Source: Gemmatimonadota bacterium (GTDB lineage Bacteria > Gemmatimonadota > Gemmatimonadetes > Gemmatimonadales > GWC2-71-9). Taken from it: DNA of 64,000 nt. The stretch covers positions 2,445 to 66,444 of the forward strand of contig JBGPPG010000003.1 in the NCBI GenBank assembly GCA_041488455.1. The letters run 5' to 3'. The notes beneath the pieces are model-generated. The model had not been told where the DNA came from. It did not search any database and worked only from the letters and a program-made list of their open reading frames with translations. This document shows, one piece after another, positions 810 through 35,808 of the stretch. Both the position numbers and the translations under genes were made by a program. The number at the start of each line of letters is the position of its first letter. Position 1 is the first letter of the stretch.

Positions 810-3455
810 GTGAGCGACATCTCGACGGCGCCCGCTGCCGAGGCGGGGCTCACGACGCTCGAGGCCCGACGCCGTCTTCGCCAGCTCGGCCCCAATCGCG
901 TCGCCGAACAGGGCGATGTGCCGCTGTGGCAGCTGGCGCTCGCCCAGTTCCGGAGCCTCGTGGTCCTGCTGCTGCTTGCCGCCTCCGGCATCGCGTGGGC
1001 GCTGGGTGAACGGGCCGAGGCGGCGGCGATCCTCGGCGCGCTCGGGCTGAACGCGGCGATCGGCTTCGGCTCCGAGTGGCGCGCCCGGCTGTCGCTGGCC
1101 AGGCTGCGCGCGCTCGCGGTGCCGCAGGCGATGGTCCGGCGAGACGGGTACGTGACCCGGATCGCTACCGCGGAGCTCGTGCCGGGCGACGTGCTCATCC
1201 TGGACGCTGGGGCGTCGGTGCCCGCGGACGCACGGCTGCTGCGGGCCGCGGCCCTGCAGGTGAATGAATCCACCCTGACCGGCGAGAGCGCGGCCGTCTG
1301 GAAGGACGCCGCCGCGCAGTCGGGGCCCGATACCCCGCTGGCCGAGCGCGCAAACATGCTCTACCTCGGCACCACGATCCTGTCCGGCAGCAGCGTCGCT
1401 CTCGTCACCGCCACCGGGCCCGCGACGGAGCTCGGGCGGATCGGCCGGCTGGTGGCGTCCGCCGGCTCGCGTGCGACGCCGCTCGAGGGTCAGGTGGAGT
1501 CACTGGGCCGGCGACTGATCGTGCTGGCGGTCGGGATCTGCGCGGTGGTGGGCATGGCCGGCATCCTGCACGGGGAGCCGGTGGGGTTGATGCTCGAGAC
1601 CGCGATCAGCCTGGCCGTCGCCGCCGTGCCCGAGGGCCTGCCGGCGGTGGTCTCGCTCGCGCTGGCCGCCGGCCTCTGGCGCCTCGCGCGCCACGGGGCG
1701 CTCGTCCGGCGCCTGGCCGCGGTGGAGACGCTCGGATCGGCCACCGTGATCTGCGCGGACAAGACCGGGACCATGACCGAGAACCAGATGACGGTGACCT
1801 CGCTCCGATTCGGCGGCCGTCGGATCACGGTGGGCGGAGGCGGCCGCTCGACCGCGGGAAGCTTCGCGGACGAAGCCGGCCGCATCGTCACCCCGCTCGC
1901 CGATCCGCATCTCACGCTGCTGCTCACCGCGGCGACGTTGTGCAACGACGCGAGCCTCCGGGCCGCGCCCGACGGGCTTCATCTCGTTGGCGATCCGACC
2001 GAGTCGGCCTTGCTGGTAGCGGCGGTCAAGGCCGGGCTCGATCCGGCCGACCTGGCGCGGGCCTGGCCTCGCCGCCGCGAGATCCCGTTCGATCCGGCGA
2101 CGCGCATGATGGCGACCTTTCACATGATGCCGGGCCACGTCATGCCGGGGGCGGGGGCCGTGCTCCTGGTCAAGGGCGCCCCCAGCGTGATCGTGGAGCG
2201 GGTGACGCGCTATCACACGGCCGCGGGCCCGGTCGCGCTGAGCGACGAGGATCGGGTCCGCCTGCTCGAGGAGAACCGGGACCTGGCTCGCGAGGGATTT
2301 CGCGTGCTCGCGTTCGCGTGGCGCCCGGTCCCGTCGATCGAGGACGCGACCGTGGAGGAGCTCACGTTCCTCGGCCTCGTCGGATTCGTGGATCCGGTGC
2401 GTTCCGGGGTGGCGGACGCCATCGCGGCCTGTCGAGAGGCCGGCATCCGCACGATCATGCTCACCGGCGACCAGGAGCTCACCGCCCTGACGGTGGGGCG
2501 TCAGCTCGGCCTCGAGCCGGAGGCGATCCGGAGCCGGGTCAGTCCGGAGGGCAAGCTCGAGCTGGTGGCCGAGCTGCAGGCCCGGGGTGAGATCGTGGCT
2601 ATGACCGGTGACGGCGTCAACGACGCCCCCGCGCTCGTCCGCGCCGATATCGGCGTGGCGATGGGCCGGCGCGGCACCGACGTGGCACGCGAGTCGGCCG
2701 ATCTGGTGCTCATCGACGACAACTTCGCGACCATCGTCGAGGCGGTGAAGGAAGGCCGCGTCATCTACGCCAATCTCCGGAAGGTCATCCGGTTTCTCTT
2801 CTCGTGCAACCTCTCCGAGATCCTCACCATCTTCGTGGCCATCCTGTTCGGCTATCCCACGCCGCTCCTGCCGCTGCAGATCCTCTGGGTGAACCTGGTC
2901 ACCGACATCCTGCCCGCGATCGCGCTGATCCGGGATCCGGCCGACGACGATGCCATGCGGCACCCCCCTCGCGATCCCACCGAGGCGCTGGTCACCTGGC
3001 GGTCGGGCGCCCGCATCCTGGGCGAGGGCGCACTGCTGGCGGCCGGGGTGCTCAGCATCTATCTCTGGACGGTCTGGCGGGATGGTCCCGGGGCGTCAGC
3101 CAGCACCATGGCCTTCATGGCGCTGGTTCTGATCCATCCGTTCCAGGCCATGAGCTGTCGGTCGGAGCGACTCAACTGGTGGCAGCTCCGGCCCAATCCA
3201 TGGATCCCGCTGTCGCTGTTGGCGCTCTTCGCGCTGCAGTGGCTCACGATCACATGGGCGCCGCTGGCCCGCCTGCTCGGCACCAGGCCCCTGACCGGCG
3301 CCGACTGGCTCGTCCTGGCGCTGGGCGTGCTGTGGCCGGTAGCCCTGCTGGAGGCCGTCAAGGCCTGGGGCCGCTTCACCACATTGAGGCCTATCTACCC
3401 CACCGTGAGGACCCACGATGAGCCGCAATCAGCGAGAACACCGCGAAAGAATTGA
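810..3455 (+). CDS. P-type cation-transporting ATPase (P2/Ca-Mg type)
   Basis: 881-aa ORF with a GTG start. It has the phosphorylation motif CADKTGTMTEN, the hinge motif TGDGVNDAPAL and multiple C-terminal TM segments. Confidence 0.9.
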   Translation: MSDISTAPAAEAGLTTLEARRRLRQLGPNRVAEQGDVPLWQLALAQFRSLVVLLLLAASGIAWALGERAEAAAILGALGLNAAIGFGSEWRARLSLARLRALAVPQAMVRRDGYVTRIATAELVPGDVLILDAGASVPADARLLRAAALQVNESTLTGESAAVWKDAAAQSGPDTPLAERANMLYLGTTILSGSSVALVTATGPATELGRIGRLVASAGSRATPLEGQVESLGRRLIVLAVGICAVVGMAGILHGEPVGLMLETAISLAVAAVPEGLPAVVSLALAAGLWRLARHGALVRRLAAVETLGSATVICADKTGTMTENQMTVTSLRFGGRRITVGGGGRSTAGSFADEAGRIVTPLADPHLTLLLTAATLCNDASLRAAPDGLHLVGDPTESALLVAAVKAGLDPADLARAWPRRREIPFDPATRMMATFHMMPGHVMPGAGAVLLVKGAPSVIVERVTRYHTAAGPVALSDEDRVRLLEENRDLAREGFRVLAFAWRPVPSIEDATVEELTFLGLVGFVDPVRSGVADAIAACREAGIRTIMLTGDQELTALTVGRQLGLEPEAIRSRVSPEGKLELVAELQARGEIVAMTGDGVNDAPALVRADIGVAMGRRGTDVARESADLVLIDDNFATIVEAVKEGRVIYANLRKVIRFLFSCNLSEILTIFVAILFGYPTPLLPLQILWVNLVTDILPAIALIRDPADDDAMRHPPRDPTEALVTWRSGARILGEGALLAAGVLSIYLWTVWRDGPGASASTMAFMALVLIHPFQAMSCRSERLNWWQLRPNPWIPLSLLALFALQWLTITWAPLARLLGTRPLTGADWLVLALGVLWPVALLEAVKAWGRFTTLRPIYPTVRTHDEPQSARTPRKN

Positions 3456-3465
3456 GCACGCGCGT

Positions 3466-3481
3466 TGGCACCCGCGTTGCT
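3466..3481 (+). promoter_or_regulatory. sigma-54 (-24/-12) promoter candidate, TGGCAC-N5-TTGCT
   Basis: The sequence TGGCACccgcgTTGCT matches the TGGCACG-N4-TTGCW consensus in GG/GC spacing and in the flanking T residues. It lies in the 39-nt gap between the ATPase stop and the HPF-like ATG. Confidence 0.55.
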
Positions 3482-3494
3482 CTCTCAACCCGAC

Positions 3495-3893
3495 ATGACT
3501 ACCAACGTGGAGCCCATCAAGATCACCGGGCTGGAGCGGGATCCGCTGCGCGGTCGGGTCACGCGGCTCATGACCGAGGCCATCGCGAAGCTGGCCGTCG
3601 CGCCGGTCAGGGGGCAGGCCTCATTCTTCGACGACAACGGGCCGAAGGGCGGCCGGGCCATGCGATGCGCGCTGACCGTGCGGCTGCCGTTCCGGCCGAG
3701 CATCCGCGTGGAGCGGAGCGCCGTGACGCCCCGCCTCGCCTTCGACGCGACCTTTGCGGTGCTTGAGCGCCAGCTCGAGCGGTATCGCGAGCGGGATCGT
3801 GACAACAAGCGGCACCCCAAGAAGTACTTCGCCGCGGGCCGGGCGGTCGCGGGCGGGACGCCGGCGCCGCGAAAGCGGGCGCGGCGCGGATAA
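3495..3893 (+). CDS. HPF/RaiA (sigma-54 modulation/S30EA) family ribosome-associated protein, divergent
   Basis: IKITG...(helix)...FFDDNGPKGGRAMRCALTVRL...FDATFAVLERQLERYRER follows the beta-alpha-beta-beta-beta-alpha pattern and the DxNGPKGG..C signature seen in short HPF-like proteins. The start is taken at ATG 3495; the track ORF begins at 3465. Confidence 0.6.
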   Translation: MTTNVEPIKITGLERDPLRGRVTRLMTEAIAKLAVAPVRGQASFFDDNGPKGGRAMRCALTVRLPFRPSIRVERSAVTPRLAFDATFAVLERQLERYRERDRDNKRHPKKYFAAGRAVAGGTPAPRKRARRG

Positions 3894-3906
3894 CGGAGGC
3901 TTGGCC

Positions 3907-5034
3907 ATGGACCTGCGGGCCCGACTGACCGCGCTCGGCAAGATAGACCGCGCCCCGGCCCCGGTGGTGACGGCCTACTTGAACACCCGGTGGGCGGACG
4001 AGCACCAGCGTGACCGCGTCCGGATCTTCCTCAAGAATCAGCTGGCGGAAGCCCGGCGCGCGCCGGGCCGGCGGGCGGCGGAGGCCGACCTGGACTGGGT
4101 GGAAGCCCAGGGTGAGGCGCTGCTGAACCAGACCGTGATGCCCGATACCGGCGGCGTCGCCCTCTTCGCGTGTGAGGCGCTGGGGCTCCGCGACATCCTG
4201 CCGAGCCGGCTGCCGTTCGAGAACAGCTTCACGGTGGCCGAGACGCCGCACCTTCGGCCGCTGCTGGAGCTCGACGAGAAGGCGCCGTCAACCCTGGTGG
4301 TATTCATCGACGCGGAGAGCGCGCGGCTGGCCCCGCTCACCGCCAGCGGAGTCGGCGAGGAAGTCGCGCTCCGGAGCGACGTGCCGGGCCACCACAGCCG
4401 GGGCGGCTGGGCGCAGTTAGCGCAGTCTCGCTATCAGCGGCACACCCAGGACCACCGGGCCCGGCATTTCGAGGCCGTGGTGGCGAGCCTGACCGGGCTC
4501 GTCGACGACCACGGCCTGCGGCGGATCGTGCTCGCGGGCGAGCCCCGCAACGTCGCCGTGTTCCGCCGGGAGCTTCCGCCGCGGATCGCCGCGTACGTCC
4601 TCGGGACCGTGGCCGGCGCCCGGCATGAAGCCCTCGGGCTCATCGTCGATCGGGCGGCCGAGTATCTCTCGCACGTGGAGGGGCAACGGGAGGCCGAAGG
4701 GGTCGACGCGACGCTGACCGCGGCGGCCAAGCGGGGCAAGGCGACGGCAGGGCTAGACGCCACCCTCGAGGCCATCAACCGGGGTGCGGTCCACCGACTC
4801 TATCTCCTCAAGGGATGGCGAACGCCCGGCCGTCGCTGCGGTGAGTGCGGCGTGCTGCGGGATGGGTTCTCCTGGAGCTGTCCGACCTGCGGCGGCGAGG
4901 CGCAGACGGTGGAGCTCGGCGAAGCGATGGCGGAGCGCGTCGCCGCCGCCGGAGGGACCATCGAGAGCATCGAGGTCCACCAGCCGCTTGCAGCGGTGGG
5001 AGGCATCGCGGCCGAGCTCCGTTATCCGCTGTGA
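3907..5034 (+). CDS. eRF1/Pelota-fold protein, bacterial archaeo-eukaryotic release factor (baeRF/host-attachment-like) family
   Basis: The start is ATG 3907 inside track ORF 3754-5034. The central segment HHSRGGWAQLAQSRYQRH aligns with the eRF1 GGQ-loop region (HGRGGQSALRFARLR). The C-terminal eRF1 domain-3-like region carries a CxxC...CxxC insert (CGECG..CPTCGG). Confidence 0.65.
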   Translation: MDLRARLTALGKIDRAPAPVVTAYLNTRWADEHQRDRVRIFLKNQLAEARRAPGRRAAEADLDWVEAQGEALLNQTVMPDTGGVALFACEALGLRDILPSRLPFENSFTVAETPHLRPLLELDEKAPSTLVVFIDAESARLAPLTASGVGEEVALRSDVPGHHSRGGWAQLAQSRYQRHTQDHRARHFEAVVASLTGLVDDHGLRRIVLAGEPRNVAVFRRELPPRIAAYVLGTVAGARHEALGLIVDRAAEYLSHVEGQREAEGVDATLTAAAKRGKATAGLDATLEAINRGAVHRLYLLKGWRTPGRRCGECGVLRDGFSWSCPTCGGEAQTVELGEAMAERVAAAGGTIESIEVHQPLAAVGGIAAELRYPL

Positions 5035-5867
5035 ACCGCGTGGCGGCGCGCCCTCCCGATCAGGATGCCCGACTGTCGCTGGCGCTGACCGTTGCCGACG
5101 AGGCCGGACGCCTCGCGATCACCGAGCAACCAGGCGCGACGGTGCGGTTCAAGGGGCCGGGTAATCGGGTCACCGCGGCGGATCTCCGGATCCAGCACGG
5201 GATGACCAGCGCCATCGCGCGGCGCTTCCCCCAGGACGGCATCGTGGCCGTGGAAGGCGACGTCCGGCAGGTCGGGGATCGCGAGTTCACCTGGATCGTC
5301 GACCCTCTGGACGGAACGAACAACTATGCGCTGGGCATCCCGTGCTTCGCGATCTCGGTTGGGCTCCTCCGCGGCGGGGAGCCGTATGCGGGGGCCGTTC
5401 ACGAGCCCAACACCGGATTCCGCTGCTGGGCGCTGCGAGGGCACGGGGCCTTCGCGGGCGACCGGCGCCTGACGCTGGCGCCGCGCGACCTCGACGCCGC
5501 CTCCAATATCGCGGTGCGCGTTCCGGTCGCCGCCGTTCTCGAGCCGCTGGTCACCCGATGGCTACGCGAGCACAAGTTCCGGAATTTCGGCTCGGTGGCC
5601 CTTCATCTGGCCTTCGCCGCGCTCGGTGCCGTGGATCTCGTCCTGGACCACAAGGCCACGCTGTGGGACCTGGCCGCGGGAGCGGTCGTGCTCCTCGAGG
5701 CCGGCGGCTGTATCACGAGCCCGGAGGGTCGCCCGCTCTTTCCCTTCGACGTGGCCGGGTACCGGGGCGCTTCCGTCCCGTTCCTGGCCGGCAATCCACT
5801 CGCCCACGCCGCCGCGGCCACCTCCTGCCGGGCGCTCGTCCCTGCCGTGGGATCGCACGAGTGGTAG
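5031..5867 (+). CDS. inositol monophosphatase (IMPase/SuhB/CysQ) family phosphatase
   Basis: WIVDPLDGTNNYALGIP is the IMPase metal-binding signature. GTG 5031 overlaps the upstream stop as GTGA. The longer track ORF (4845-) overlaps the previous gene. Confidence 0.85.
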   Translation: MNRVAARPPDQDARLSLALTVADEAGRLAITEQPGATVRFKGPGNRVTAADLRIQHGMTSAIARRFPQDGIVAVEGDVRQVGDREFTWIVDPLDGTNNYALGIPCFAISVGLLRGGEPYAGAVHEPNTGFRCWALRGHGAFAGDRRLTLAPRDLDAASNIAVRVPVAAVLEPLVTRWLREHKFRNFGSVALHLAFAALGAVDLVLDHKATLWDLAAGAVVLLEAGGCITSPEGRPLFPFDVAGYRGASVPFLAGNPLAHAAAATSCRALVPAVGSHEW

Positions 5868-5874
5868 CGCGATC

Positions 5875-8338
5875 ATGACGCGTCGACTCGAGCCGGCTGA
5901 TCTCCGCGCGGTCTGCGATCCGGGCGCGCTGCCGTTTCGATCCACTGCCGAGCTGCCGCCGGTGGACGGGTTGATCGGACAGGAGCGCGCGGCGACCGCC
6001 ACCGCGTTCGGCGTGGGCATGCGCCACCCCGGCTACAATCTCTTCGTCCTCGGTCCGGCCCGCACCGGCAAGACCTCGTCGATGAAGCGGGAGCTCACCC
6101 GGGCCGCCGAGCGCGAGCCGGTGCCGCCCGACTACTGCTACGTACACAACTTCGCGGATCCGTACCGGCCCACCGCGCTCGAGGTGCCCGCCGGGCGCGG
6201 GCTCCGGGAGCACATGCGTCGGCTGGCCGAGGAATGCCGGATGCGTCTCCCCCGGGCCTTCGAGAGCGAGGAGTTCGAGCAGCAGAAGTCCAAGATCCTG
6301 GAGGACCTGGGTCGGCGCCAGCAGGAAGAGATGAACCACCTGGAGCAAGTCGCCCGGGCCCACCGGTTCGCGGTCCTCCGCACACCGGCCGGAATGGGCC
6401 TCGCTCCCGCGCCACACGGCGAGCCGTTGAGCCCGTCGGACTACGCGGCCCTTCCCGACGCGGTGAAGCAGGAGATGCAACGGGAGAGCACGGCCGTCGA
6501 GCAGCAGATGGACATGTCCCTGCGCCGGATCCGGCAGGTCGAGCGCGAGGCGCGGGACGCCCACGAGCGGCTGGTCCGTGAGGTGGTGGCGGCGGCGGTC
6601 CGTCCGCTGGTCCAGGAGCTTCTCGAGGAATTCGCCGGGCTGCCCGACGTCGAGCGATATCTGACGGAGGTGGAACAGGACCTGGTGGCCCACGCCGAGG
6701 AGCTCCGCGGCACCGCCGAGATGAAGCCGGTGCTGCCCTTCATGCCGACTCCCGGGCGCTTCCTGGACCGCTACGAGGTCAATGTCCTGGTGGACCGCCA
6801 TGGGCTCTCCGGCGCGCCGGTGGTGCTCGAGCCGAATCCCACCTGGCAACCTGATGGGGCGCACCGAGCACCGGGCGCACTTCGGCACCCTGGTGACGGA
6901 TTTCAGCCTCATCCGGTCCGGGGCACTGCACCGGGGGAATGGGGGCTACCTGGTCCTGGACGCCGTCGATGTGCTGCGCCATCCGCTGGTCTGGGACGCG
7001 CTCAAGAAGGCGCTCAAGACCCGATCGATACGGATCGAGGACCCGCTGGAGGAATGGCGGATGGCCAGCAGCGCGGGCCTCGCGCCCCAGCCCATTCCGC
7101 TCTCGGTCAAGGTGGTCCTGATCGGCAGCCCGTTCCTCTACTATCTGCTGTCGGCCCTCGACGAGGATTTCCACGAGCTGTTCAAGGTCAAGGTGGATTT
7201 CGACGACTCGCTGGCGCGCACCTCGGACTTCGAGCTGCTCTACGCCCGGTTCGTCGGCAGCGCCTGCCGGGAGGAAGGACTCCTCGCGTTCTCCGCGGAC
7301 GGGATCGCCCGGCTCATCGAGCACTGCAGCCGGCTCATCGCCGATCGGGGCCGCCTGACCTCGCGGCTGGGCGACGTGCTGGATCTGGTTCGCGAGTCCT
7401 CGTTCTGGGCCGGTCAGCGCGGTCACGCGCTCGTCGCGGCCGACGACGTCGATCACTCGATCGCGCAGGAGACGTATCGCGCGAACCTCCTGGAGGAGCG
7501 CACGCGCCGGATCATCACCGAAGGCACGCAGCTCATCGACACCGAGAGGCGCGCGGTAGGCCAGGTCAACGGCATCTCGGTACTGGCCCTCGGCGACCAT
7601 GTCTTCGGCCGCCCCGCGCGGAGCACCGCGCGCACCCACGCGGGCGAGCCGGGGGTGGTGGACATCGAGCGGGAGGCCAAGCTGGGCGGGCCGATCCACT
7701 CCAAGGGGGTGATGATCCTGGCCGGCTACGTGGCGGGGTGCTACGCACGGGAGCGCCCGCTGGCGCTCTCGGCGTCCATCGCGTTCGAGCAGCAGTACGA
7801 GGAGGTCGAGGGCGACAGCGCGTCATCCGCCGAGTTGTACGCCCTGCTCTCGAGTCTTACCGGCATCCCGCTCGATCAGGCGATCGCAGTCACCGGCTCG
7901 GTGAACCAGCGCGGGGAGATCCAGCCGATCGGCGCGGTGAACGAGAAGATCGAGGGCTTCTTCGACGTCTGCCAGGCCCGCGGACTCACCGGCCGCCAGG
8001 GGATGCTGATCCCGGAGGCAAATACCCGGCACCTGATGCTCCGCCGGGACGTGGTGGAAGCGGTGCGCGCGGGCCGCTTCCACGTGTACGCGGTCACCAC
8101 GGTCGACGAGGGACTGGCGCTGCTGACCGGACGCGAGGGCGGTGAGCGGGGAGCCGACGACCGGTACCCGGACGGCAGTGTCAATGCGGCCGTGGAGCGC
8201 GCCCTGGCGGCCAACGTCGAGCGCCTCAAGAAGATGCGGGCGGAGAAGCCTCACCTGATCGTCCAACCGGCCGAGGATCCGGTGGAGCCCTGGTCGTCCA
8301 TCCCGGACGGACGGCCGACCGGGCGCAAGGAGGAATGA
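5875..8338 (+). pseudogene. Lon-like ATP-dependent protease (AAA+ domain plus Lon C-terminal Ser-Lys protease domain; LonB/YcbZ-like), interrupted by a +1 frame change near 6847
   Basis: The N-terminal half is in frame 1: MTRRLEP..., Walker A GPARTGKT, up to ...VVLEPNPTW. It continues without loss of similarity in frame 2: NLMGRTEHRAHFGTLVTDFSLIRSGALHRGNGGYLVLD ... GDSASSAELYALLSSL ... GAVNEKIEGF. Read together the two give a normal ~820-aa protein. Confidence 0.75.
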
Positions 8339-8360
8339 GCGTGAGGACACGGTGGACGGA

Positions 8361-9416
8361 TCAGGGCCCCGGCGCCGCGCGGATCCCGACCCGGGCCGGT
8401 GCGCCCTCGTCGAGGGTGACGCGGACGGGAAGCATCCGCTCGACCACCCAAGCCACCGTGCGCAGGTGGCTCGAGAGCCGCGGGCAGGTGAAGGCCGACG
8501 GCGTCTCGGCGACGGCCAGGAACGGGATCAGCTGGTCGGCCAGATGATCGTCCCCGTTCGCGCCGGTCTGCAGGTAGGCGAGGAACGGATCCACCGCCTC
8601 GTCCGCCACCGCTTCGGCCCGGACCCCGCGCCGGCCGAGAGCAGAGAAGCCGGCGAGCGCCGACTCACCGGTGGCGGTCAGCATCGTGAGCGTCCCGGGC
8701 CCGAGCGCGGTCCGATCCTCCACGAGCGTGATCGTCGCCGGCAGCCCGGCGGCCGCGAGCCGATCGAGCACCCGCGCCTGCTGTCGCTCGGCGATCGAGC
8801 GCGGGAGCCGCGACACCGCGGAGATGCCCTCGAGGGTCGGCGCGATCGCCCGCGCCCAGTGGATGGACCGCCAGGAGCTGCTGGGCGTGATCGAGACCTC
8901 GACCTCCCCTCCGCCGGCCGGATACCACCCCCAGCGGTGCAGGGTGAGGTCGGCCCGGACCCCGATGCGACGGACCGCCGGCAGGAAGACGCTGGTGAGG
9001 TAGGGCACGGGAGGGCTCCAGGGCACGTGGGTGCCGCCACGAAGCCGCAGCCGCGACGGCTCCGCGGCGAGGCTCAGCGGCAGGAGCAGGGCCTGGAAGA
9101 GGAGCGCCACGGAGCCGGCGCTGCCTCGAACGGCGCCGATATCGAACCGGTAGCTGCCGCCGCGCAGCGTCCGCGGGATGAACGTCACCTCGGTGGAGTC
9201 GAGCGCGTCGCCGGTGACTTCGGCATCGCTGATCGCGGCGAGGGCCCGGACCACCGTGAGGTGCTGCGGCTGCAGTCCGGCGCGGGGACGCCGGGCGCGA
9301 ATCTGCCGGAGCGCCACCGGCCGGCCGAGGGCGACCGACAGCGAGAGCGCGGTGCGGAGCACCTGTCCGCCGCCCTCGCCATGAGAGGCGTCGATCGCCG
9401 TCGTGGGTCCGGTCAC
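8361..9416 (-). CDS. rtcA: RNA 3'-terminal phosphate cyclase
   Basis: 351-aa ORF. IDASHGEGGGQVLRTALSLSVALGRPV is the RtcA N-terminal hallmark, and the full-length architecture is consistent. Confidence 0.9.
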   Translation of the reverse strand: MTGPTTAIDASHGEGGGQVLRTALSLSVALGRPVALRQIRARRPRAGLQPQHLTVVRALAAISDAEVTGDALDSTEVTFIPRTLRGGSYRFDIGAVRGSAGSVALLFQALLLPLSLAAEPSRLRLRGGTHVPWSPPVPYLTSVFLPAVRRIGVRADLTLHRWGWYPAGGGEVEVSITPSSSWRSIHWARAIAPTLEGISAVSRLPRSIAERQQARVLDRLAAAGLPATITLVEDRTALGPGTLTMLTATGESALAGFSALGRRGVRAEAVADEAVDPFLAYLQTGANGDDHLADQLIPFLAVAETPSAFTCPRLSSHLRTVAWVVERMLPVRVTLDEGAPARVGIRAAPGP

Positions 9417-9475
9417 GACCGTACAGTAACCGACTCGGCGCGGCGGTGCTGCCGGCTCGGATGCGCAGGCCTTCG

Positions 9476-10672
9476 ATGAGTCTCGTGATCGAATCCATCG
9501 GCGGGACGCCGGTCGCGCGCCGGCGGATCGAGATCGTGGAGCGGAAAGGACTCGGACACCCGGACACCATCTGCGATTCGGTGGTGGAGGCGATCTCCGT
9601 CGCGCTCGGCCGCCTGTACCTCGAGCGCGCCGGCGTCATCGCGCACTACAACATCGACAAGGCGCTGCTGGTGGCGGGCCAGTGCGTCAAGCGCTTCGGT
9701 GGCGGCGAGGTGACGCGCCCCATCGAGCTGATCATCGGCGACCGCGCCACCGACGTCCTCAACGGACGCCCCCTTCCGGTCGTGGAGACGGTTCGCCACG
9801 CGGTGGACGAGTGGGTCGGCGCGAATCTCCCCGGCGTGAGACCCGGGAAGGATCTCGTCACGCGCGTGGCGCTCGCGCCCGGCTCCGAGGAGCTGCGCCG
9901 CGTCTACACGGAGGGGCCAGCCGAGATCGCCTCCAACGATACATCCGGCGCGTCCGGCTACGCGCCCCTGAGCCTCACCGAGGAGCTCGTCCTCGCCACC
10001 GAGCGATACCTGAACTCGAGGGAGTTCAAGGCCGCCTTCCCGGACACGGGCCAGGACGTCAAGGTGATGGGCGTCCGTCACGACCAGCGTCTGGCCGTCA
10101 CGGTCGCCATGCCGCTCTCGTGTCTCCACACGCGCTCGGAGGGCGCGTACTTCGCGCGGAAGGACGAGATCCTCCACGCCCTCACGACCCGCTTCGCCTC
10201 GGTCCCGTTCACCGTGGACTGGCACCTCAACTGTCTCGACCGGCGCGGGCAGGGCCTGGAAGGCGTGTATCTCACGTTGACCGGGACATCGGCCGAAGAT
10301 GCCGACTCCGGTCAGGTGGGACGCGGCAACCGCGCCAATGGGCTCATCGCCTTCTCGCGGCCGACGGGGGGCGAAGCCACCGCCGGCAAGAACCCCGCAG
10401 CGCACGCCGGGAAGGTGTATAGCGTCTTGAGTCACCGGCTGGCGCGCCTCATCCACGATCGGTGCCCGAGACTCCTCGAGGTCTACGTGCACCTGGTCGT
10501 GCGCATCGGCGAGCCGGTGGATCGACCGTGGACGGGCGTCCAGCTCCTGCTGCCTCCCGGCACCGCGCTCGAAGATGTGGAACGGGCGATCCGAGAGGTG
10601 GTGGAAGCCGAGCTGGCCCGTCTGCCGGCCTTCCGGGCCGAGCTGGTCAGGGGCGAGCATCCGGTCTGCTGA
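9476..10672 (+). CDS. archaeal-type S-adenosylmethionine synthetase (MAT, PF01941-like)
   Basis: ERKGLGHPDTICD, NDTSGASGYAP and LTGTSAEDADSGQVGRGNRANGLI match the archaeal-type AdoMet synthetase, not bacterial MetK. The start is taken at ATG 9476. Confidence 0.85.
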   Translation: MSLVIESIGGTPVARRRIEIVERKGLGHPDTICDSVVEAISVALGRLYLERAGVIAHYNIDKALLVAGQCVKRFGGGEVTRPIELIIGDRATDVLNGRPLPVVETVRHAVDEWVGANLPGVRPGKDLVTRVALAPGSEELRRVYTEGPAEIASNDTSGASGYAPLSLTEELVLATERYLNSREFKAAFPDTGQDVKVMGVRHDQRLAVTVAMPLSCLHTRSEGAYFARKDEILHALTTRFASVPFTVDWHLNCLDRRGQGLEGVYLTLTGTSAEDADSGQVGRGNRANGLIAFSRPTGGEATAGKNPAAHAGKVYSVLSHRLARLIHDRCPRLLEVYVHLVVRIGEPVDRPWTGVQLLLPPGTALEDVERAIREVVEAELARLPAFRAELVRGEHPVC

Positions 10673-10684
10673 TCGGTGACGCGG

Positions 10685-10701
10685 GGTGGGGCTGTCCCAC
10701 C
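10685..10701 (+). terminator. GC hairpin downstream of the MAT gene (weak terminator candidate)
   Basis: GGTGGG-gctgt-CCCACC lies 13 nt after the stop. No T-tract follows it. Confidence 0.25.
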
Positions 10702-10773
10702 TGAGGCGTGAATTCTTGCCCCGGGGAGCCACGCTTCTCACGAAGTTCGTTTTCTTTTCGGCCCCATAGGTGC

Positions 10774-10789
10774 AGGTACGTCACTTGCA
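10774..10789 (+). promoter_or_regulatory. sigma-54-like -24/-12 element (AGGTACG-N4-TTGCA)
   Basis: The GG and GC dinucleotides have consensus spacing, and TTGCA is a consensus -12 box. The -24 box is imperfect. The site is 16 nt upstream of the ybaK-like ATG. Confidence 0.35.
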
Positions 10790-10804
10790 AGCCCATCGGG
10801 CGTC

Positions 10805-11518
10805 ATGTACGAGCGACTGGAAGAGCTTCTCGGGGTCCGGGGCGTCCACTACGAGCTGATGCCGCATCCGGAAGCCTTCACCGCGCAGGAGGAAGCAGCC
10901 AAGGCCCACGTCTCCGGCTGGTCCTGGGCCAAGACCGTGGTGGTCAAGGACCCGGTCGGCCTCGCGCTGGCCGTGCTGCCGGCCTGCTGCACGGCCGACC
11001 TCGACCGGCTCAAGGGCCTGATCGGCCGCGGCGAGATCCGTCTGGCCAGTGTCGAGGAGATCCTGGCGGGTTTTCCCGGCTGTGCGCTCGGCGCGACCCC
11101 GCCGTTCGGGCGGCTGTTCGGCATCCCCACGGCGGTGGACGAGTCGCTGGTCGAGCAGCGCGACATCGTGCTTCCGGCCGGGGATCACCGGACCGCGATC
11201 CGGATGCGCACGGCGGACTACCTGAGCCTGGCCGAGGCCCGCCCGGGTCATTTCGCATTCCACGAAGCGCACGAGTTCTCGGTACATCCCCATCCGCGCG
11301 GCCGCGCCCCTAGTCGAAGGAGAGAGCAAACATGGCGCACAAACAGGTCCTGTTCCGTTCCGAAGCCCGCGAGCGCATCCTGCGCGGAGTGGCCGCCCTC
11401 GCCGATGCGGTCCGCGTCACGCTGGGGCCAAAGTCCAAGTGCGTCCTCCTGGAGAAGCGCTTCGGCGCCCCGGTGGTCTGCAACGACGGCGTCACGATCG
11501 CCAAGGAGATGGAGCTGA
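10805..11518 (+). CDS. YbaK/EbsC/ProX-like aminoacyl-tRNA deacylase domain protein (3' end uncertain)
   Basis: The first ~155 aa ([19 protein letters not shown]...WAKTVVVKD...GATPPFG...) look like a YbaK-type editing domain. The frame then stays open for about 80 more low-complexity codons and runs 187 nt into groEL. Confidence 0.6.
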
Positions 11519-12957
11519 AAGACCCGGTGGAGAACCTTGGGGCGCAGATGATCCGCCAGGCCGCGGAACGCACCGGCGACGCGGTGGGCGACGGCACCAG
11601 CACGTCCACGATCCTGGCCCACGCGATCTTCGCCGACGGCGTGCGCAACGTGGTGGCCGGGGCGAGCGCGGTGGATCTGAAGAAGGGGCTCGATCGCGGC
11701 GTCCGTACGGCGGTGGAGGCGCTGAAGCTGCTCTCGCGGCCGGTGAAGAGCCGGCTCGAGAAGGCCCAGATCGCCGCCATCTCCGCCCACAACGACCAGA
11801 GCATCGGCGAGATGGTCGCCGACGCGATGGAGAAGGTGGGCAACGAAGGCGTGATCACGGTCGAGGAGTCCAAGACGACGGAGACCCAGCTCGAGGTGGT
11901 CGAGGGGCTGCAGTTCGACCGCGGCTATCTGTCACCGTACTTCATCACCGACGCGGAGAAGATGGAGGCGGTCCTCGAGGACGCCCTGGTCCTCCTCAGC
12001 GACCGGAAGATCGGCGTGATGAAGGACCTGGTCCCGATCCTCGAGCAGGCGGCGCGCGCGGGGCGCTCGATCCTCGTGGTCGCCGAGGACGTCGAGGGGG
12101 AGGCGCTCGCCACCCTCGTGGTCAACAAGATCCGCGGCTCGCTCAAGTGTGTCGCGGTGAAGGCCCCGGGGTTCGGCGACCGGCGCAAGGAGATGCTCGA
12201 GGACATTGGCATCCTGACCGGCGGGCGCGTCCTCACCGAGGAGATCGGCATCAAGCTCGAAGCCCTCAGCATCGAGGATCTCGGCCGGGCCACCCGCGTC
12301 GTGGTAGACAAGGACAACACCACCATCATCGGGGGCGCCGGCGACAAGCCCCGGATTGAGGGCCGCAAGCAGCAGATCCGGGCGCAGATCGACAAGACCA
12401 CGAGCGACTACGACCGGGAGAAGCTCCAGGAGCGACTAGCCAAGCTGTCGGGCGGCGTGGCGGTCGTCCGGGTTGGGGCTCCCTCGGAATCGGAGATGAA
12501 GAGCAAGAGGGAAGCGCTCGACGACGCCATCAGCGCCACCAAGGCGGCGGTGGCCGAGGGCATCGTGCCGGGCGGCGGGCTCGCGCTGCTGCGGGTGATC
12601 GAGGCGGTGGAGCGTGAGGAGAGCAAGTGCGAAGGCGACGAGCGCACCGGGCTGCAGATCCTCCGCCGCGCGCTCGAGACGCCGACCCGCCAGATCGCCG
12701 AGAACTCCTCGGTGGACGGCGGCGTGGTGGTGAACCAGATGCGGCTGGGCAAGGGGAACATGGGCTTCGACGCCGCGCGGAAGGAGTACGTGGACCTGGT
12801 GGAGGCCGGCATCATCGATCCCACGAAGGTGGTGCGGGTCGCGCTCGAGAACGCGGTGTCGGTGGCGAGCCTGTTGCTGCTCACCGAGGCCACCTTGACC
12901 GAGGTGCCCGAGAAGAAGGAAGATCGGGCCGGTGCGCACGGGCTCGAGGACATGTGA
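11332..12957 (+). CDS. groEL: chaperonin GroEL (60 kDa)
   Basis: 541 aa. It begins [20 protein letters not shown]...[31 protein letters not shown]...[10 protein letters not shown]. An RBS GAAGGAGAG lies upstream. There is no groES upstream and no GGM-repeat tail. Confidence 0.95.
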
Positions 12958-12963
12958 GGGCGG

Positions 12964-13620
12964 ATGATGCTCGTCCGGGACATCATGCAGACCCACCCGG
13001 TCAGCGCGACACTGGAGACGCGCCTGCCCCACCTGCTGCGCCTGCTGCAGCGGCGCGGGTTTCGCCACCTTCCGGTCGTGGATTCAGGCAAGCTCGTCGG
13101 CATCATCTCCGACCGTGACCTCAAGCAGTCCATGATCTCGGCCGCCTCGACGACCGAGGGATCGGAGCGCGATCGGCTTCTCGACGAGCTCACCGCGGGA
13201 CAGATCATGGCGCGCGCAGTGGTCACGGTCGGACCGACGATCGGCGTCGACGAGGCGGCCAGGCTCATGGCGACGCGGAAGATCAGCGCGCTGCCGGTCA
13301 CCGAGGGAGACCGGCTCGTCGGCATCGTGACGGAGACCGACGTGCTCCAGCTCTTCGTGCGGGCCATGGGGGTCCTCGAGCCGTCGAGTCGCCTGGACGT
13401 GATCCTGCGCGATCAGACCGCCGGGCTGGGCGAGGTGGTCCGGGCGGTCGAGGAGGCCGGCAGCCGGATCTCCAGCGTGATGACGCTGGCGATGCCGACC
13501 GGTGAGCGGGAAATCGTGCTGCGCCTCGCGACGATCAATCCGGGGCCGGCGGTGAAGGCGCTCGAGGCGAAAGGCTTCGTCGTGAGGGATGCCGCTCGCG
13601 GCGCGCCCGCGGGGCCGTGA
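12964..13620 (+). CDS. CBS-pair domain protein with C-terminal ACT-like domain (AcuB-like)
   Basis: Two CBS repeats are present (HLPVVDSGKLVGIISDRDL; ALPVTEGDRLVGIVTETDV). They are followed by an ACT-like SRLDVILRDQTAGLGEVVRAVEEAGSRISSV segment. Confidence 0.8.
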   Translation: MMLVRDIMQTHPVSATLETRLPHLLRLLQRRGFRHLPVVDSGKLVGIISDRDLKQSMISAASTTEGSERDRLLDELTAGQIMARAVVTVGPTIGVDEAARLMATRKISALPVTEGDRLVGIVTETDVLQLFVRAMGVLEPSSRLDVILRDQTAGLGEVVRAVEEAGSRISSVMTLAMPTGEREIVLRLATINPGPAVKALEAKGFVVRDAARGAPAGP

Positions 13621-14555
13621 GCGCGACGAATCAGATCATCGCGGACCGGCTCCGCGAGGCCGCCGATCTTCTCGAGCAGCAGGCCGCGAACCCGTTCCGG
13701 GTTCGCGCCTACCGCGAGGCCGCCCAGACGGTCTCGGGCCTCGGGCAGGAGCTCGCCCTGATCCACGAGCGCGACGGCGTTGCGGGTCTCGACGCGCTGC
13801 CGGGGATCGGGCCGCGGATCGCTGCCGCGATCGCCGAGATGCTCCGGACGGGCCGCTGGAGCCAGCTCGAGCGGCTCCGCGGGAGCCTGGACGCCGAGCG
13901 GCTTTTCCGGGCCATTCCCGGCGTGGGGCCCGCGCTCGCCCGACGGATTCACGACACGTTGCACGTGGACACGCTGGAGGCCCTCGAGGTCGCCGCCCAC
14001 GATGGGCGCCTGGCCGCGGTGTCCGGGGTCGGCCCGCGCCGTGCCGCGGGGCTTCGCGCCGCGCTCGGTGCCATGCTGGGGCGCACCCGGCTGCGACCCC
14101 GCGAGCCGGCCAAGGAGCCGCCGGTGGCAATGCTGCTGGACGTGGACCGACAGTACCGCGACGCGGCCGACGCCGGCCGCCTCCCCCGGATCGCGCCGCG
14201 CCGCTTCAACCCGGAGGGTCGCGCCTGGCTGCCGGTCCTCCACGCCGAGCGCGATCACTGGCAGTTCACGGCGCTCTTCTCCAATACCGCCCGGGCGCAC
14301 GAGCTGGAAAAGACGCGAGACTGGGTCGTCGTCTACTTCCACACCGACACCCAATCGGAGGGGCAGCGCACGATGGTGACGGAGACATCGGGTCGGCTGG
14401 CCGGACGGCGTGTGGTCCGCGGTCGCGAGAGCGAGTGTCTGGCCGCCTACGGGGTCCCGGAGAGGAGCCAGGGCACGCCGAGCGCGAGCAACGTCAGCAG
14501 GAAGAAGGCGCCGAAGATCCCGCCGAGAGCCCAGAAGGCGGGCCGGCTGATATAG
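13617..14555 (+). CDS. helix-hairpin-helix DNA-binding protein (PolX N-terminal 8-kDa/fingers-like, no polymerase core)
   Basis: NQIIADRLREAADLLEQQAANPFRVRAYREAA plus the repeated HhH motifs LPGIGPRIA, IPGVGPALA and VSGVGPRRA. GTG 13617 overlaps the CBS stop as GTGA. The last ~36 codons overlap the convergent transporter gene. Confidence 0.6.
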   Translation: MSATNQIIADRLREAADLLEQQAANPFRVRAYREAAQTVSGLGQELALIHERDGVAGLDALPGIGPRIAAAIAEMLRTGRWSQLERLRGSLDAERLFRAIPGVGPALARRIHDTLHVDTLEALEVAAHDGRLAAVSGVGPRRAAGLRAALGAMLGRTRLRPREPAKEPPVAMLLDVDRQYRDAADAGRLPRIAPRRFNPEGRAWLPVLHAERDHWQFTALFSNTARAHELEKTRDWVVVYFHTDTQSEGQRTMVTETSGRLAGRRVVRGRESECLAAYGVPERSQGTPSASNVSRKKAPKIPPRAQKAGRLI

Positions 14556-19139: not shown

Positions 19140-20277
19140 GATGCCTGGCGATCGTGCGCTGGCGATCGCGCGGAAGGAGACGCGACAGCTCCTCCGCGAC
19201 CCCACGTACCTGGGCCTCGCGATCGTCGTGCCGCTGCTGCTCATCCTCCTCCTCGGCTATCAGCTCTCGCTGGACGTCAAGGGGCTCCTGGTGGCGGTGG
19301 TGGACCACGACCGCTCCCGGTGGAGCCGGGAGTACATCGACGGGGTCGTCCACTCCGAGTACTTCCGGCTCGTCGGCGTGCTCGACGGCGCGGAGGAAGC
19401 GCGGGAATGGGTCCGCTCGGGCCGGGCCCGCGTGGTCATCGACATTCCGCCCGACTTCGGACGGCGGCTCAGCGCCGGCGAGTCCGCCACCCTGGGCGTG
19501 ACCGTGGATGGCTCGTTCCCGACCCGCGGCCAGATCGGGGCGGCCTACGTGGAGGCGATCAGCGCGCAGTACAACCAGCGGCTCCTGCGCGAGTACCTCG
19601 TCCGCCACGGCGCGGGAGACGACCGGTTGTGGCCCGTCCAGATGGAGCTGGCCGTCTGGTACAACCCCACGCTCGAGAGCAAGAACTTCATCGTGCCCGG
19701 CATGCTGGTCGTGATCCTCATGATATTCCCGCCGCTGCTGAGCGCGCTGCTGATCGTGCGCGAGCGCGAGAGCGGCACCATTCTCAATCTCTACTGCTCG
19801 CCGGCGAGCCGGTGGGACATCCTGGCCGGCAAGGCGTTGCCGTACGTGGCCGTCTCGTTCCTCGACTTCCTGCTGATCTTCGCGGTCAGCATCTGGCTCT
19901 TCCGCGTCCGGTTCGTGGGCGCGGTGTGGATCCTGGCGGTGGGCGCGCTGCTCTACTCGGTCTGCATGGTGGGCCTCGGTCTGCTGATCTCCACGGTGAC
20001 GCGAAGCCAGCTCGCCGCGATGCTCGCCACGTTTCTCGGCGCGGTGGCCCCCGCCTTCACGTTCTCCGGCATCTTCACGCCGGCCGGGAGCCTGGACCCG
20101 GTCGGCCGGTTCGTGAGCCGCCTGATCCCCGCCACGTACTTCATGGATGTCGTCCGCGGCAGCTATCTCAAGGGCGGCGACGTCGCCGCGTACGTGCCGA
20201 GCCTGCTGATCCTCCTGCTCTACGCCGTGGTCATCTCCACCGCGGCCTGGCTCAGCCTCCGGAAACGGCTCGGCTGA
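19132..20277 (+). CDS. ABC-2 type transporter permease (YbhS/YbhR-like)
   Basis: 381 aa, beginning ARKETRQLLRDPTYLGLAIVVPLL, with a large periplasmic loop and then 5 TM segments. It overlaps the ATPase gene by 8 nt. Confidence 0.85.
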   Translation: MPRMPGDRALAIARKETRQLLRDPTYLGLAIVVPLLLILLLGYQLSLDVKGLLVAVVDHDRSRWSREYIDGVVHSEYFRLVGVLDGAEEAREWVRSGRARVVIDIPPDFGRRLSAGESATLGVTVDGSFPTRGQIGAAYVEAISAQYNQRLLREYLVRHGAGDDRLWPVQMELAVWYNPTLESKNFIVPGMLVVILMIFPPLLSALLIVRERESGTILNLYCSPASRWDILAGKALPYVAVSFLDFLLIFAVSIWLFRVRFVGAVWILAVGALLYSVCMVGLGLLISTVTRSQLAAMLATFLGAVAPAFTFSGIFTPAGSLDPVGRFVSRLIPATYFMDVVRGSYLKGGDVAAYVPSLLILLLYAVVISTAAWLSLRKRLG

Positions 20278-21395
20278 TGGGCAGCCGTCTCGCGGCCATG
20301 ATCCGGAAGGAGTGGAGCCAGCTCTTCCGGGACGTGCCCATCCTCCTGTTCGTGATCTGGGCCTTCACGGGCGCCGTCTACACCGGGGGTCACGGCGTGG
20401 GCGCCGAGCTCCGGAACTATCCCATGGCCGTGCTCGATCTCTCCCGCAGCGCGGAGAGCCGCGAGCTGCTGTCCCGATTCCGCGCGCCGTACTTCAAGAT
20501 CGTCGGCCATGTCTCGGGCGACGCCGAGCTGGTGCGCTGGCTCGATGGGGGCCGGGCCAGCCTGGTCCTCGTCATTCCGGCGGATTTCGATCGCCGCGCT
20601 CAGCAGGGCGGCGCGCGGTTCCAGGTGATCTCGGACGGCAGCCAGTCCATGTCAGCGACGATCGCCGGGGCGCACATCGCCGGCATCGCCGGCCGCTACA
20701 GCGTGGAGCTGCTGGAGGCCCGGATGGGCGTGGCCCACGGCCGCCTGCCGCAGGTGGATGCCCGCGTCCGCGTGGAGTACAACCCGAATCTCGTCGAGAC
20801 GTGGTTCTCCGGCCTGCTCGAGGTCTTCAACCAGGTCACCATGATCGCGATGCTGCTGGCCGCCGCCGCCATGGTGCGGGAGCGCGAGCACGGCACGATC
20901 GAGCATCTGCTGGTGAGCCCGCTGCGGTCCTGGGAGCTGTTCACCGCGAAGGTCGTGCCGGTGGTCGTCCTGGTGCCGCTGGCCGCCCTCGGCTCGGTGT
21001 TCGGGATCGTCCACGGGGTGTTCGCCACCCCCATCCGGGGCAGTGTCGCGCTGTTCTACGCGGTGACCGTGATCTACGTCTTCGCCCTGGCGAGCCTGGG
21101 CCTCACCATCGCGGTCCTGGCCCGCAACCTCGGCCAGGCGATGCTGCTCCTCCTCCTGATCCTGTACCCGATGATGCTGCTCTCGGGCGCCTTCACCCCG
21201 CCCGAGAGCATGGGGCCGCTCATGCGGTACGCGAGCCTCGTGTCCCCGGTGCGCCACTACGTCGATTTCGGCTACCAGGTCCTCTTCAAGGGGAACGGTC
21301 TGGCGTATGTCTGGCCGGACGTGGCGGGCATCCTGGCGCTGGGCGTGCTGCTGTTCGCGATCTCCATCCGGCGCTTCGCGCGGCTCGCGCGCTGA
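20277..21395 (+). CDS. ABC-2 type transporter permease (second subunit, YbhR/YbhS-like)
   Basis: It begins MGSRLAAMIRKEWSQLFRDVPILLFVIW... and has the same architecture as the preceding permease. The ATG overlaps the upstream TGA by 1 nt (TGATG). Confidence 0.85.
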   Translation: MGSRLAAMIRKEWSQLFRDVPILLFVIWAFTGAVYTGGHGVGAELRNYPMAVLDLSRSAESRELLSRFRAPYFKIVGHVSGDAELVRWLDGGRASLVLVIPADFDRRAQQGGARFQVISDGSQSMSATIAGAHIAGIAGRYSVELLEARMGVAHGRLPQVDARVRVEYNPNLVETWFSGLLEVFNQVTMIAMLLAAAAMVREREHGTIEHLLVSPLRSWELFTAKVVPVVVLVPLAALGSVFGIVHGVFATPIRGSVALFYAVTVIYVFALASLGLTIAVLARNLGQAMLLLLLILYPMMLLSGAFTPPESMGPLMRYASLVSPVRHYVDFGYQVLFKGNGLAYVWPDVAGILALGVLLFAISIRRFARLAR

Positions 21396-21468
21396 CCGCC
21401 GGTCGGTCGGCGCTCCGCGCCGGTTTGTCTGGGGCCGGCCCACCCCATTTGTGGCGCGCCCGCCCCAA

Positions 21469-21489
21469 GCGTCGCGGGAGCCGCGACGC
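21469..21489 (+). terminator. 9-bp GC hairpin after the ABC-2 operon (weak terminator candidate)
   Basis: The sequence is GCGTCGCGG-gag-CCGCGACGC. No clear U-tract follows. Confidence 0.25.
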
Positions 21490-21517
21490 AAGTTCCTGAA
21501 ATGACGCGCGTTCGGCC

Positions 21518-21533
21518 TGGCATCGAGCTTGTA
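21518..21533 (+). promoter_or_regulatory. sigma-54-like element (TGGCAT-N5-TTGTA), imperfect -12
   Basis: The -24 spacing is correct, but the -12 reads GT instead of GC. The site is 54 nt upstream of the lmo0937-type gene. Confidence 0.3.
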
Positions 21534-21586
21534 ATACGGAGGGGCAGGGAACGGATGCAGTGGCCGGTACTCAAAGGGAGGCTGCC

Positions 21587-22547: not shown

Positions 22548-22563
22548 TGGCACCTCGCTTGCT
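22548..22563 (+). promoter_or_regulatory. sigma-54 (-24/-12) promoter candidate, TGGCAC-N5-TTGCT
   Basis: TGGCACctcgcTTGCT has the same core as the site at 3466 and is also preceded by T. It lies 77 nt upstream of the BON gene ATG, which has its own GGAAGGAG RBS. Confidence 0.55.
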
Positions 22564-22639
22564 TTGGACGTCTTCAAGCGGGGGATACGGGCCCGAGTGA
22601 TGCACCACCCTGATCGAAATAGGGAAGGAGATTCTGGCC

Positions 22640-33831: not shown

Positions 33832-33948
33832 GGCGTGCCTCACGTGTGGCGCATGTGCCCCATTCCCGCACGAGCGAGCGCCGCCGGCTTGGCCCAGACA
33901 ATTCCCGCGGAGCGCGGAGTTGCTACGCATCACTGAGCCAAGGCGAGC

Positions 33949-33964
33949 TGGCACGGGCGATGCT
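33949..33964 (+). promoter_or_regulatory. sigma-54-like promoter (TGGCACG-N4-ATGCT)
   Basis: There is one mismatch to TGGCACG-N4-TTGCW. The site is 75 nt upstream of the truncated nucleotidyltransferase ATG, which has a GGAGGA RBS. Confidence 0.4.

Positions 33965-34395: not shown

Positions 34396-35808
<1,413 letters not shown>

Follow-up and report, generated by a model that had tools for sequence, protein, structure and literature searches.

Positions 3466 to 5034 on the plus strand of the 64-kb window analysed here (64,000 nucleotides of contig JBGPPG010000003.1, assembly GCA_041488455.1) probably constitute a sigma-54-dependent ribosome hibernation pair, in which the gene of a short HPF/RaiA-family protein is followed by the gene of a Balon-type protein with eRF1 fold (baeRF family 10, hereafter baeRF10), in a dormancy-like stress island. 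This reading, which is some way from certain, is preferred because the family and fold matches of the products coincide with the pairing of the two genes in 37 of 73 related loci, with the presence, in 22 of 36 orthologous loci, of a sigma-54-type promoter element in front of the HPF-like gene and with the published co-occupancy of ribosomes by Balon and RaiA. The combination of an HPF gene, an eRF1-fold gene and an Rtc-family gene in a stress locus is an already published pattern, and the conserved unit consists only of the promoter, the HPF-like gene and baeRF10.

The eRF1-fold and HPF-like proteins

The eRF1-fold gene (3907–5034, plus strand) encodes a three-domain bacterial aeRF1 homologue of 375 amino acids, as assigned by profile, AlphaFold2 model and Foldseek. 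Its product scores 80.6 bits with Pfam baeRF_family10 (PF18854; gathering threshold 27.1), the best of eight related models, while the Pfam acVLRF1 model is also above its cut-off (32.0 vs 27.1). The model structure (predicted local distance difference test 81), in which disorder is confined to the loop 160–176, is predicted to possess the complete aeRF1 architecture with an N domain, an RNase-H-like middle domain and a Pelota-like C domain. Its full-length Foldseek matches, with E values in the range of 1e-16 to 1e-20, include Balon Msmeg1130 (2e-20), aRF1 (4e-18), eRF1, the Balon of P. urativorans (2e-17) and Rv2629 (8e-17). The comparison of the family profile with PDB sequences likewise has Balon Msmeg1130 as the best match, over the full length (E 3.5e-15), followed by eRF1, Pelota and Balon Rv2629. 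The initial annotation of this DNA, made from the letters without database searches, had proposed the eRF1 fold, which is borne out by the family score and the full-length structure matches.

With respect to the curated subfamilies, the baeRF10 protein reaches 71.1, 58.1 and 36.0 bits with the NCBIfam Balon models NF052287, NF052288 and NF052289, which have cut-offs of 320, 480 and 330, respectively. The score with the class-I release factor model for aRF1/eRF1 (TIGR03676) is 40.3 bits vs a cut-off of 234.7, and the protein is also far under the Pelota cut-off. The NIKS motif is absent from the window protein and so is a literal GGQ, the position aligned to the eRF1 GGQ being occupied by a GGWAQ loop (HHSRGGWAQ, residues 160–170). 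In a set of 30 homologues, each of the residues G166, G167, W168, A169 and Q170 shows a conservation of at least 90%, and 101 of 117 close homologues contain GGWAQ. Family-wide, GGW[SAT]Q, mostly as GGWSQ, is found in 48 of 93 full-length representatives of clusters at 50% identity, with a nearly constant loop length. A zinc ribbon of the CxxC..CxxC type (C311/C314/C325/C328 in the window protein) is present in 87 of the 93 representatives. By its sequence, the GGW[A/S]Q loop corresponds to the GGxSQ/GxuQ pattern of Vms1-like families, and the conserved glutamine in this catalytic-type loop (GxuQ), which has been reported for family 10, is present in the window protein; NCBI names relatives of baeRF10 'Vms1/Ankzf1 family peptidyl-tRNA hydrolase'. 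As family 10 retains both the glutamine-bearing loop and the zinc ribbon, its members might hydrolyse peptidyl-tRNA. No experimental work on baeRF family 10 was found in the literature searched.

The gene upstream (3495–3893, plus strand) encodes the short HPF/RaiA-family protein of 132 amino acids and is separated from baeRF10 by a 13-nt gap that contains GGAGG. The score of the protein with Pfam Ribosomal_S30AE (PF02482) is marginal (26.1 bits, cut-off 23.7), and a profile of 21 orthologues matches the ribosome-bound HPF-type chain 7m4z_v with an E value of 2e-10 and Thermus thermophilus HPF (2ywq, 6gzx) with 2e-5. The protein displays a DDNGPKGG..RC loop, which 7m4z_v has in common as DENGxKGG..C, and a conserved basic tail, RHPKKYFAA. 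The HPF-like assignment, as proposed initially, thus agrees with the Pfam cut-off as well as with the profile matches to ribosome-bound HPF structures. As a separate observation, CBS-pair proteins are abundant around the HPF-like gene (12964–13620 in the window, 1275–1733 in locus L069 and in many other loci). Since HPF domains are fused to CBS modules in recently described archaeal hibernation factors (PMC13324472), separate CBS proteins might act together with the HPF-like protein.

The sigma-54 promoter

The element noted initially just upstream of the gene string, TTGGCAC-N5-TTGCT, is present at 3465–3481 and kept in orthologous loci. Its core (TGGCACCCGCGTTGC, 3466–3480, plus strand) is an exact match to the −24/−12 consensus TGGCAC-N5-TTGC with the GG and GC doublets, intergenic and in the correct orientation, 10 nt past the stop codon of a P-type ATPase gene and 14 nt ahead of the ATG at 3495. 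The exact core occurs twice in the 64-kb window, where 0.13 occurrences are expected from shuffles. In the 22 orthologous loci that carry it 5' of the HPF-like gene, the element reads TGGCA[CT]-N5-TTGC with both doublets retained, while spacer and flanks differ. Genes for NtrC-type enhancer-binding proteins with a GAFTGA motif are located upstream in loci L007–L011, L017 and L025 and on the P0067 contig; in L007–L010 they are found 8–9 kb upstream, as is another sigma-54 element, which precedes universal stress protein (USP) genes. Across the fetched loci, 88 sigma-54 elements were recorded, the majority on the baeRF strand. As the element is kept across loci whose spacer and flanks have diverged, and as activators and further elements accompany it in related loci, it is very likely that the 3466–3480 element is a genuine promoter and that the island forms a sigma-54 regulon. 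None of the six frames of the window encodes a GAFTGA enhancer-binding protein; judged from related contigs, the window starts in the middle of the island.

The only other exact element in the window (TGGCACCTCGCTTGC, 22548–22562, plus strand), detected by motif scan, precedes a BON-domain (OsmY-like) gene (element and gene within 22548–22951, plus strand), which suggests that the stress regulon under sigma-54 reaches at least 19 kb past the HPF-baeRF locus. A scan of 3300–9600 gave no sigma-70 promoter and a single intrinsic terminator, on the minus strand and at chance level. With Rfam at gathering thresholds, a tRNA-Ala at 55350 is the only RNA element in the window.

In the window clade, the distance from the GC doublet to the ATG of the HPF-like gene is a constant 14 nt, and L031 and L054 show it independently; the spacing is seen in the window, L001–L007, L010, L031 and L054. 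Taken together with the usual spacing of sigma-54 promoters to the transcription start, this distance would predict an almost leaderless mRNA, with about 3 nt ahead of the start codon. In other clades, the GC doublet is located 39–69 nt from the ATG and a clear Shine-Dalgarno sequence is present.

Conservation of the pair and its accessory genes

The gene neighbourhood was compared for 73 fetched loci. The 37 loci with a same-strand HPF-like gene upstream of baeRF10 are all from Rokubacteria, and the two genes are either adjacent (3–57 nt) or split by island genes, most often one USP gene. Locus L011, for example, has the order HPF, USP, APH, USP, a small open reading frame (ORF), baeRF10, a radical S-adenosylmethionine (SAM) enzyme, phosphoenolpyruvate synthase and LonC. 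The out-of-phylum loci stem from Anaeromyxobacter, Myxococcales, Thermodesulfobacteriota, Deferrisoma camini, other Deltaproteobacteria and Tectimicrobiota. In these fetched non-Rokubacteria loci, neither an HPF-like gene nor IMPase, LonC or RtcA genes stand beside baeRF10 or its distant relatives (29–36% identical), which are found alone, among unrelated neighbours or next to heat-shock genes. In a Tectimicrobiota metagenome-assembled genome (MAG; L073, 1001–8131), baeRF10 is located beside a heat-shock cluster of DnaJ, a MerR-type regulator, HSP20 and LonA, and an unannotated ORF of 81 codons directly 5' of baeRF10 gives no match to the HPF-like profile.

Downstream of baeRF10, the window carries genes for an IMPase-fold phosphatase, a LonC-type protease and the RNA 3'-terminal phosphate cyclase RtcA, which the initial annotation had joined with the pair into one unit of five genes. 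This unit does not hold: only HPF and baeRF10 are conserved, the other genes being missing or decayed in sister lineages, and LonC is frameshifted in the window itself. The synteny of the four same-strand genes is confirmed in close relatives, but fails in sister lineages and in other phyla. IMPase, LonC and RtcA are jointly present only in close relatives (78–86% identical baeRF), and they form a clade-specific block between the HPF-baeRF pair and a SAM synthetase gene. The IMPase gene adjoins baeRF10 only in the window clade (L001, L003, L004, L009), and mere remnants of it are left in L006 (6317–6511), L007 (11167–11259) and L010 (11166–11303). LonC is found nearby in L001, L004, L007, L009, L011, L025 and L022, is split in L009 (12265) and reduced to remnants in L014 (4328–5002). 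The rtcA gene is nearby in L001, L004, L009, L010, L021 and L020 and convergent in L021, L010 and the window clade. The tightest link of baeRF10 and RtcA was observed in L020 (10001–12168; baeRF10 57% identical), where rtcA follows 39 nt downstream on the same strand. In L003, on the other hand, IMPase is followed by the SAM synthetase with no LonC and no RtcA, while in L005, L008 and the P0067 contig baeRF is directly followed by MAT. A contig with a 68% identical baeRF, which opens with an NtrC-type sigma-54 activator, likewise leads from baeRF straight to the SAM synthetase. The P-type ATPase gene is fragmented in L003 (4916–7546). The decay of island genes in related contigs reflects either relaxed selection or indel errors of the MAGs.

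The IMPase-fold protein (5031–5867, plus strand, 278 amino acids) overlaps baeRF10 by 4 nt (GTGA) and is followed by LonC after a 7-nt gap, so that all three junctions of the string, including the 13-nt gap after the HPF-like gene, are as initially described. Its phosphatase fold is evident from the Inositol_P score (151.8 bits) and the metal-site motifs DPLDGT and WDLAAG. The protein is under every NCBIfam equivalog cut-off (HisN 123.5/275, CysQ 79.4/228.8, IMPase/SuhB 75/332) and belongs to the general Inositol_P fold only.

The protease likewise is of the family anticipated, LonC, as its LonC_helical, AAA_32, LonB_AAA-LID and Lon_C domains and the Ser-Lys dyad motifs GDSAS and NEKIEG show, but it is not the single intact gene it was taken for. 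With its 2464 nt, a length not divisible by 3, the stretch 5875–8338 cannot be covered by a single reading frame. The N-terminal part (5875–6846, plus strand, frame 1), with the Walker A motif GPARTGKT and the LonC helical insert, is separated by a 2-bp deletion (6844–6847, between 6844 and 6845) from the C-terminal part (6848–8338, plus strand, frame 2), with AAA_32, the LID and Lon_C. Compared to the four intact orthologues used for alignment (L001, L004, L007, L009), ACC TAC GGC AAC has become ACC T--GG CAA C; the intact orthologue in L001 has 823 amino acids. As the identical deletion is carried by L069, an independently assembled JGI metagenome contig (99.97% identity over 11 kb, three single-nucleotide polymorphisms), the lesion is most likely real in the population and not an assembly slip. 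The Lon motifs elsewhere (GPARTGKT, GGYLVLD, GDSAS, NEKIEG) are intact and the lesion is probably recent. LonC is judged to be inactivated in this population.

The convergent gene on the minus strand (8361–9416) was correctly recognized as rtcA, its product scoring 362.5 bits with the TIGR03399 equivalog (cut-off 250) and containing the catalytic histidine motif HLADQ. No RtcB domain was found in the called ORFs scanned across the 64 kb, 20277–21570 and 27005–27819 being among the few stretches outside the scan, and no rtcR regulator among the window ORFs scanned, in line with the initial statement that both are missing. IMPase, LonC and RtcA are most likely variable island cargo, which probably shares the stress regulon yet is dispensable.

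Proposed function and alternative explanations

If 3466–5034 encodes a hibernation pair, a stress signal would be sensed by an NtrC-type response-regulator activator, as encoded about 9 kb upstream in related contigs, which would open the −24/−12 promoter. The short HPF/RaiA-type protein would bind to the small subunit and block the mRNA and tRNA sites, as is known from its family, while the eRF1-fold protein, as homology and gene pairing suggest, would fill the A site of RaiA-bearing ribosomes in the manner of Balon. More speculatively, baeRF10 may also free nascent chains from ribosomes caught in elongation before storage, since it keeps the conserved GGW[A/S]Q loop. Hibernation by a Balon/HPF pair would thereby be extended to a soil phylum that is uncultured and slow-growing, and would be tied to sigma-54 control.

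Several observations weigh against a hibernation pair. The glutamine loop and the zinc ribbon would suit an enzyme with hydrolase activity no less well than an inert plug, the scores with the Balon models are far under all three curated cut-offs, and the hibernation role of family-10 proteins is predicted from homology. The predicted transcription start would furthermore leave a leader of a mere 3 nt or so. Finally, both rtcA and LonC turn up repeatedly in the vicinity of baeRF10 in the phylum, in several differing arrangements (L020, L021, L022, L011/L025), and the accessory genes may for this reason be more than passengers.

An alternative, the initial model in narrower form, is a rescue and repair pathway, in which baeRF10 would be an active release factor or Vms1-like enzyme that liberates nascent chains from stalled or damaged ribosomes, RtcA would treat the RNA 3'-phosphate or cyclic-phosphate ends thus generated, LonC would degrade the released peptides and the IMPase-fold enzyme would handle a phosphorylated by-product. 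The loop aligned to the GGQ of eRF1 is near-invariant in close homologues, frequent family-wide and constrained in length, though about half of the family representatives are without the exact glutamine motif. Burroughs and Aravind (2019, PMC6514570) singled out family 10 for its well-conserved glutamine and flagged it as a possibly active peptidyl hydrolase. The acVLRF1 match and the Vms1/Ankzf1 names of NCBI relatives point in the same direction. Vms1/ANKZF1 cleaves tRNA to leave a 2',3'-cyclic phosphate, so that cleavage of this type would provide RNA ends for RtcA, the gene of which is tightly downstream of baeRF10 in L020 and convergent in L021, L010 and the window clade, while LonC is nearby in L011, L022 and L025. 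However, the four- or five-gene string is confined to close relatives, frameshifts break LonC both here and in L009, with remnants of it left in L014, IMPase has decayed in L006, L007 and L010, and baeRF10 in Deferrisoma, other Deltaproteobacteria, Tectimicrobiota, Anaeromyxobacter and Myxococcales does without these neighbours. Moreover, no rtcB ligase that could complete a repair was found, and we know of no IMPase-family enzyme that acts on RNA ends. An integrated pathway of rescue and repair is therefore unlikely. The five-gene pathway is not supported, and the association seen at this locus is a commonplace case of one already published.

A narrower variant retains the HPF partner and the sigma-54 control but makes baeRF10 an active eRF1/Vms1-type enzyme that strips nascent chains or clips tRNA at the entry into dormancy. 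We regard it as doubtful; if true, it would add a 'clear-then-park' step that is absent from the inert Balon proteins, and the RNA 3' ends so produced would, in some Rokubacteria, become substrates of RtcA. The loose but recurring linkage with rtcA would fit such a catalytic step, be it peptide release or tRNA clipping. With its glutamine loop and zinc ribbon, baeRF family 10 is the best candidate for a bacterial eRF1 homologue that still hydrolyses peptidyl-tRNA. Alternatively, the genes might do no more than reside in the same stress island and, at most, share regulators, their adjacency being inherited with the island. All 37 paired loci indeed come from one phylum, the gene content of the island is fluid, and what is inserted between HPF and baeRF varies from a USP gene or an APH-like kinase to up to 2.4 kb of sequence. 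Against mere co-location stand the same-strand HPF-baeRF junction of 13–57 nt with its Shine-Dalgarno sequence, which is kept across 46–92% protein identity, as well as the same pairing in the literature for other baeRF/Balon families in other phyla together with their physical co-occupancy of the ribosome. We consider this explanation quite unlikely.

Genomic context

The window has a G+C content of about 70%, and the closest homologues (97–59% identical) come from Methylomirabilota/Rokubacteria MAGs; the host is taken to be an uncultured soil bacterium of this group. Directly upstream of the promoter, profiles identify a P-type (Ca2+-type) cation ATPase (810–3455, plus strand), which is conserved ahead of HPF in the window clade. 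Downstream of the accessory block, profiles identify an archaeal-type SAM synthetase, a YbaK-like tRNA_edit protein, a Cpn60/TCP1 chaperonin, a CBS-pair protein and a PolX-like HHH protein (9446–14555, plus strand), an order repeated in L003, L004, L009 and L010. A BON-domain gene and a USP gene follow further downstream in the window. In L001, the order is USP, USP, APH-like kinase, AAA_33 kinase, response regulator, CBS protein, GNAT (opposite strand), P-type ATPase, HPF-like, baeRF10, IMPase, LonC, GYD, RtcA (opposite strand) and SAM synthetase. The contents of the island are of stress/dormancy type: besides universal stress and CBS proteins, it encodes a P-type ATPase, a chaperonin and a BON protein. 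The toxin or conflict context envisaged initially finds no counterpart among these stress and dormancy genes; the PADLOC defence models gave no match for any of six proteins, and a defence-system context was dropped.

Some further features of the window were recorded. The YbaK-like ORF (10805–11518) overruns the start of Cpn60 (11332) by 186 nt, while its L003 orthologue of 173 amino acids stops 17 nt before Cpn60. A second frameshift suspected in this gene was rejected, as tblastn follows a single frame over residues 1–167 and only the C-terminal end differs. The archaeal-type SAM synthetase (PF01941, 9446–10672) is part of the conserved island, and genes for S-adenosylhomocysteine hydrolase and MTHFR are located further on (34345–35808 and 35729–36670), so that methyl-cycle genes cluster with stress genes. 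Near 34 kb (33000–35000), the G+C content falls from about 0.70–0.73 to about 0.64–0.66, a lower level that is maintained over the rest of the window; the step could mark an island boundary, horizontal acquisition or an assembly join. A class-V aminotransferase ORF (36685–38259, minus strand) with an N-terminal match to a Cro/YdaS-like helix-turn-helix is either an unusual fusion or an over-extended ORF.

Comparison with known systems

The bacterial aeRF1 homologues Balon, Rv2629 and Msmeg1130 have been characterized as A-site hibernation factors by cryo-electron microscopy and in vitro translation (Helena-Bueno et al., 2024, PMC10901736). Balon-type factors share ribosomes with RaiA, their genes most often adjoin raiA with rtcB as a common neighbour, and Balon, Rv2629 and Msmeg1130 are without NIKS and GGQ (PMC10901736). 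The initial view that there is no experimental description of such a unit is outdated by this work, and the HPF-baeRF neighbourhood had been reported in 2019 (PMC6514570). Like Balon with RaiA, the window baeRF10 displays the three-domain aeRF1 fold without NIKS, with Balon as the best PDB match by sequence and structure, and its gene is found in a stress locus directly beside a member of the HPF/RaiA family and close to one of the Rtc family. Unlike Balon, it is only 18–22% identical and below the NCBIfam Balon cut-offs, and family 10 keeps a zinc ribbon in domain 3 as well as a conserved GGW[A/S]Q loop at the position of the GGQ that Balon reportedly lacks. In further contrast to Balon loci, the neighbour is RtcA and not RtcB, and a sigma-54 promoter is present.

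The baeRF-1 families were defined, their recurrent HPF neighbourhood reported and the insertion of baeRF into the A site together with HPF proposed by Burroughs and Aravind (2019, PMC6514570). The window protein conforms to family 10 of this clade as a Pfam member with the family-10 glutamine and the HPF association of the clade. While the clade is framed there partly in terms of biological conflict, baeRF10 is found here in a stress/dormancy island without PADLOC matches; neither a sigma-54 promoter nor a LonC association, as found here, was retrieved by term search in PMC6514570. With the Vms1/ANKZF1 proteins (VLRF-1) of eukaryotic ribosome quality control, baeRF10 has in common the eRF1-like catalytic domain, the GGxSQ/GxuQ-type loop and the acVLRF1 match, but it retains the full three-domain eRF1 architecture, is without Cdc48-type partners and matches baeRF10 more strongly.

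An RtcA orthologue and a sigma-54 promoter in the neighbourhood recall the rtcBA operon of Escherichia coli with RtcR and sigma-54, although neither rtcB nor rtcR, a CARF-type enhancer-binding protein, was found in the window ORFs scanned, and rtcA, encoded by the other strand, does not follow the sigma-54 element. The DosR dormancy regulon of mycobacteria comprises USPs, the CBS protein Hrp1, the P-type ATPase CtpF, Rv2629, the RtcB protein Rv2631 and the HPF-type Rv0079. The island would parallel it with a very similar gene repertoire around a Balon-type gene, but in a different phylum and with sigma-54 and an NtrC-type activator in the place of DosR.

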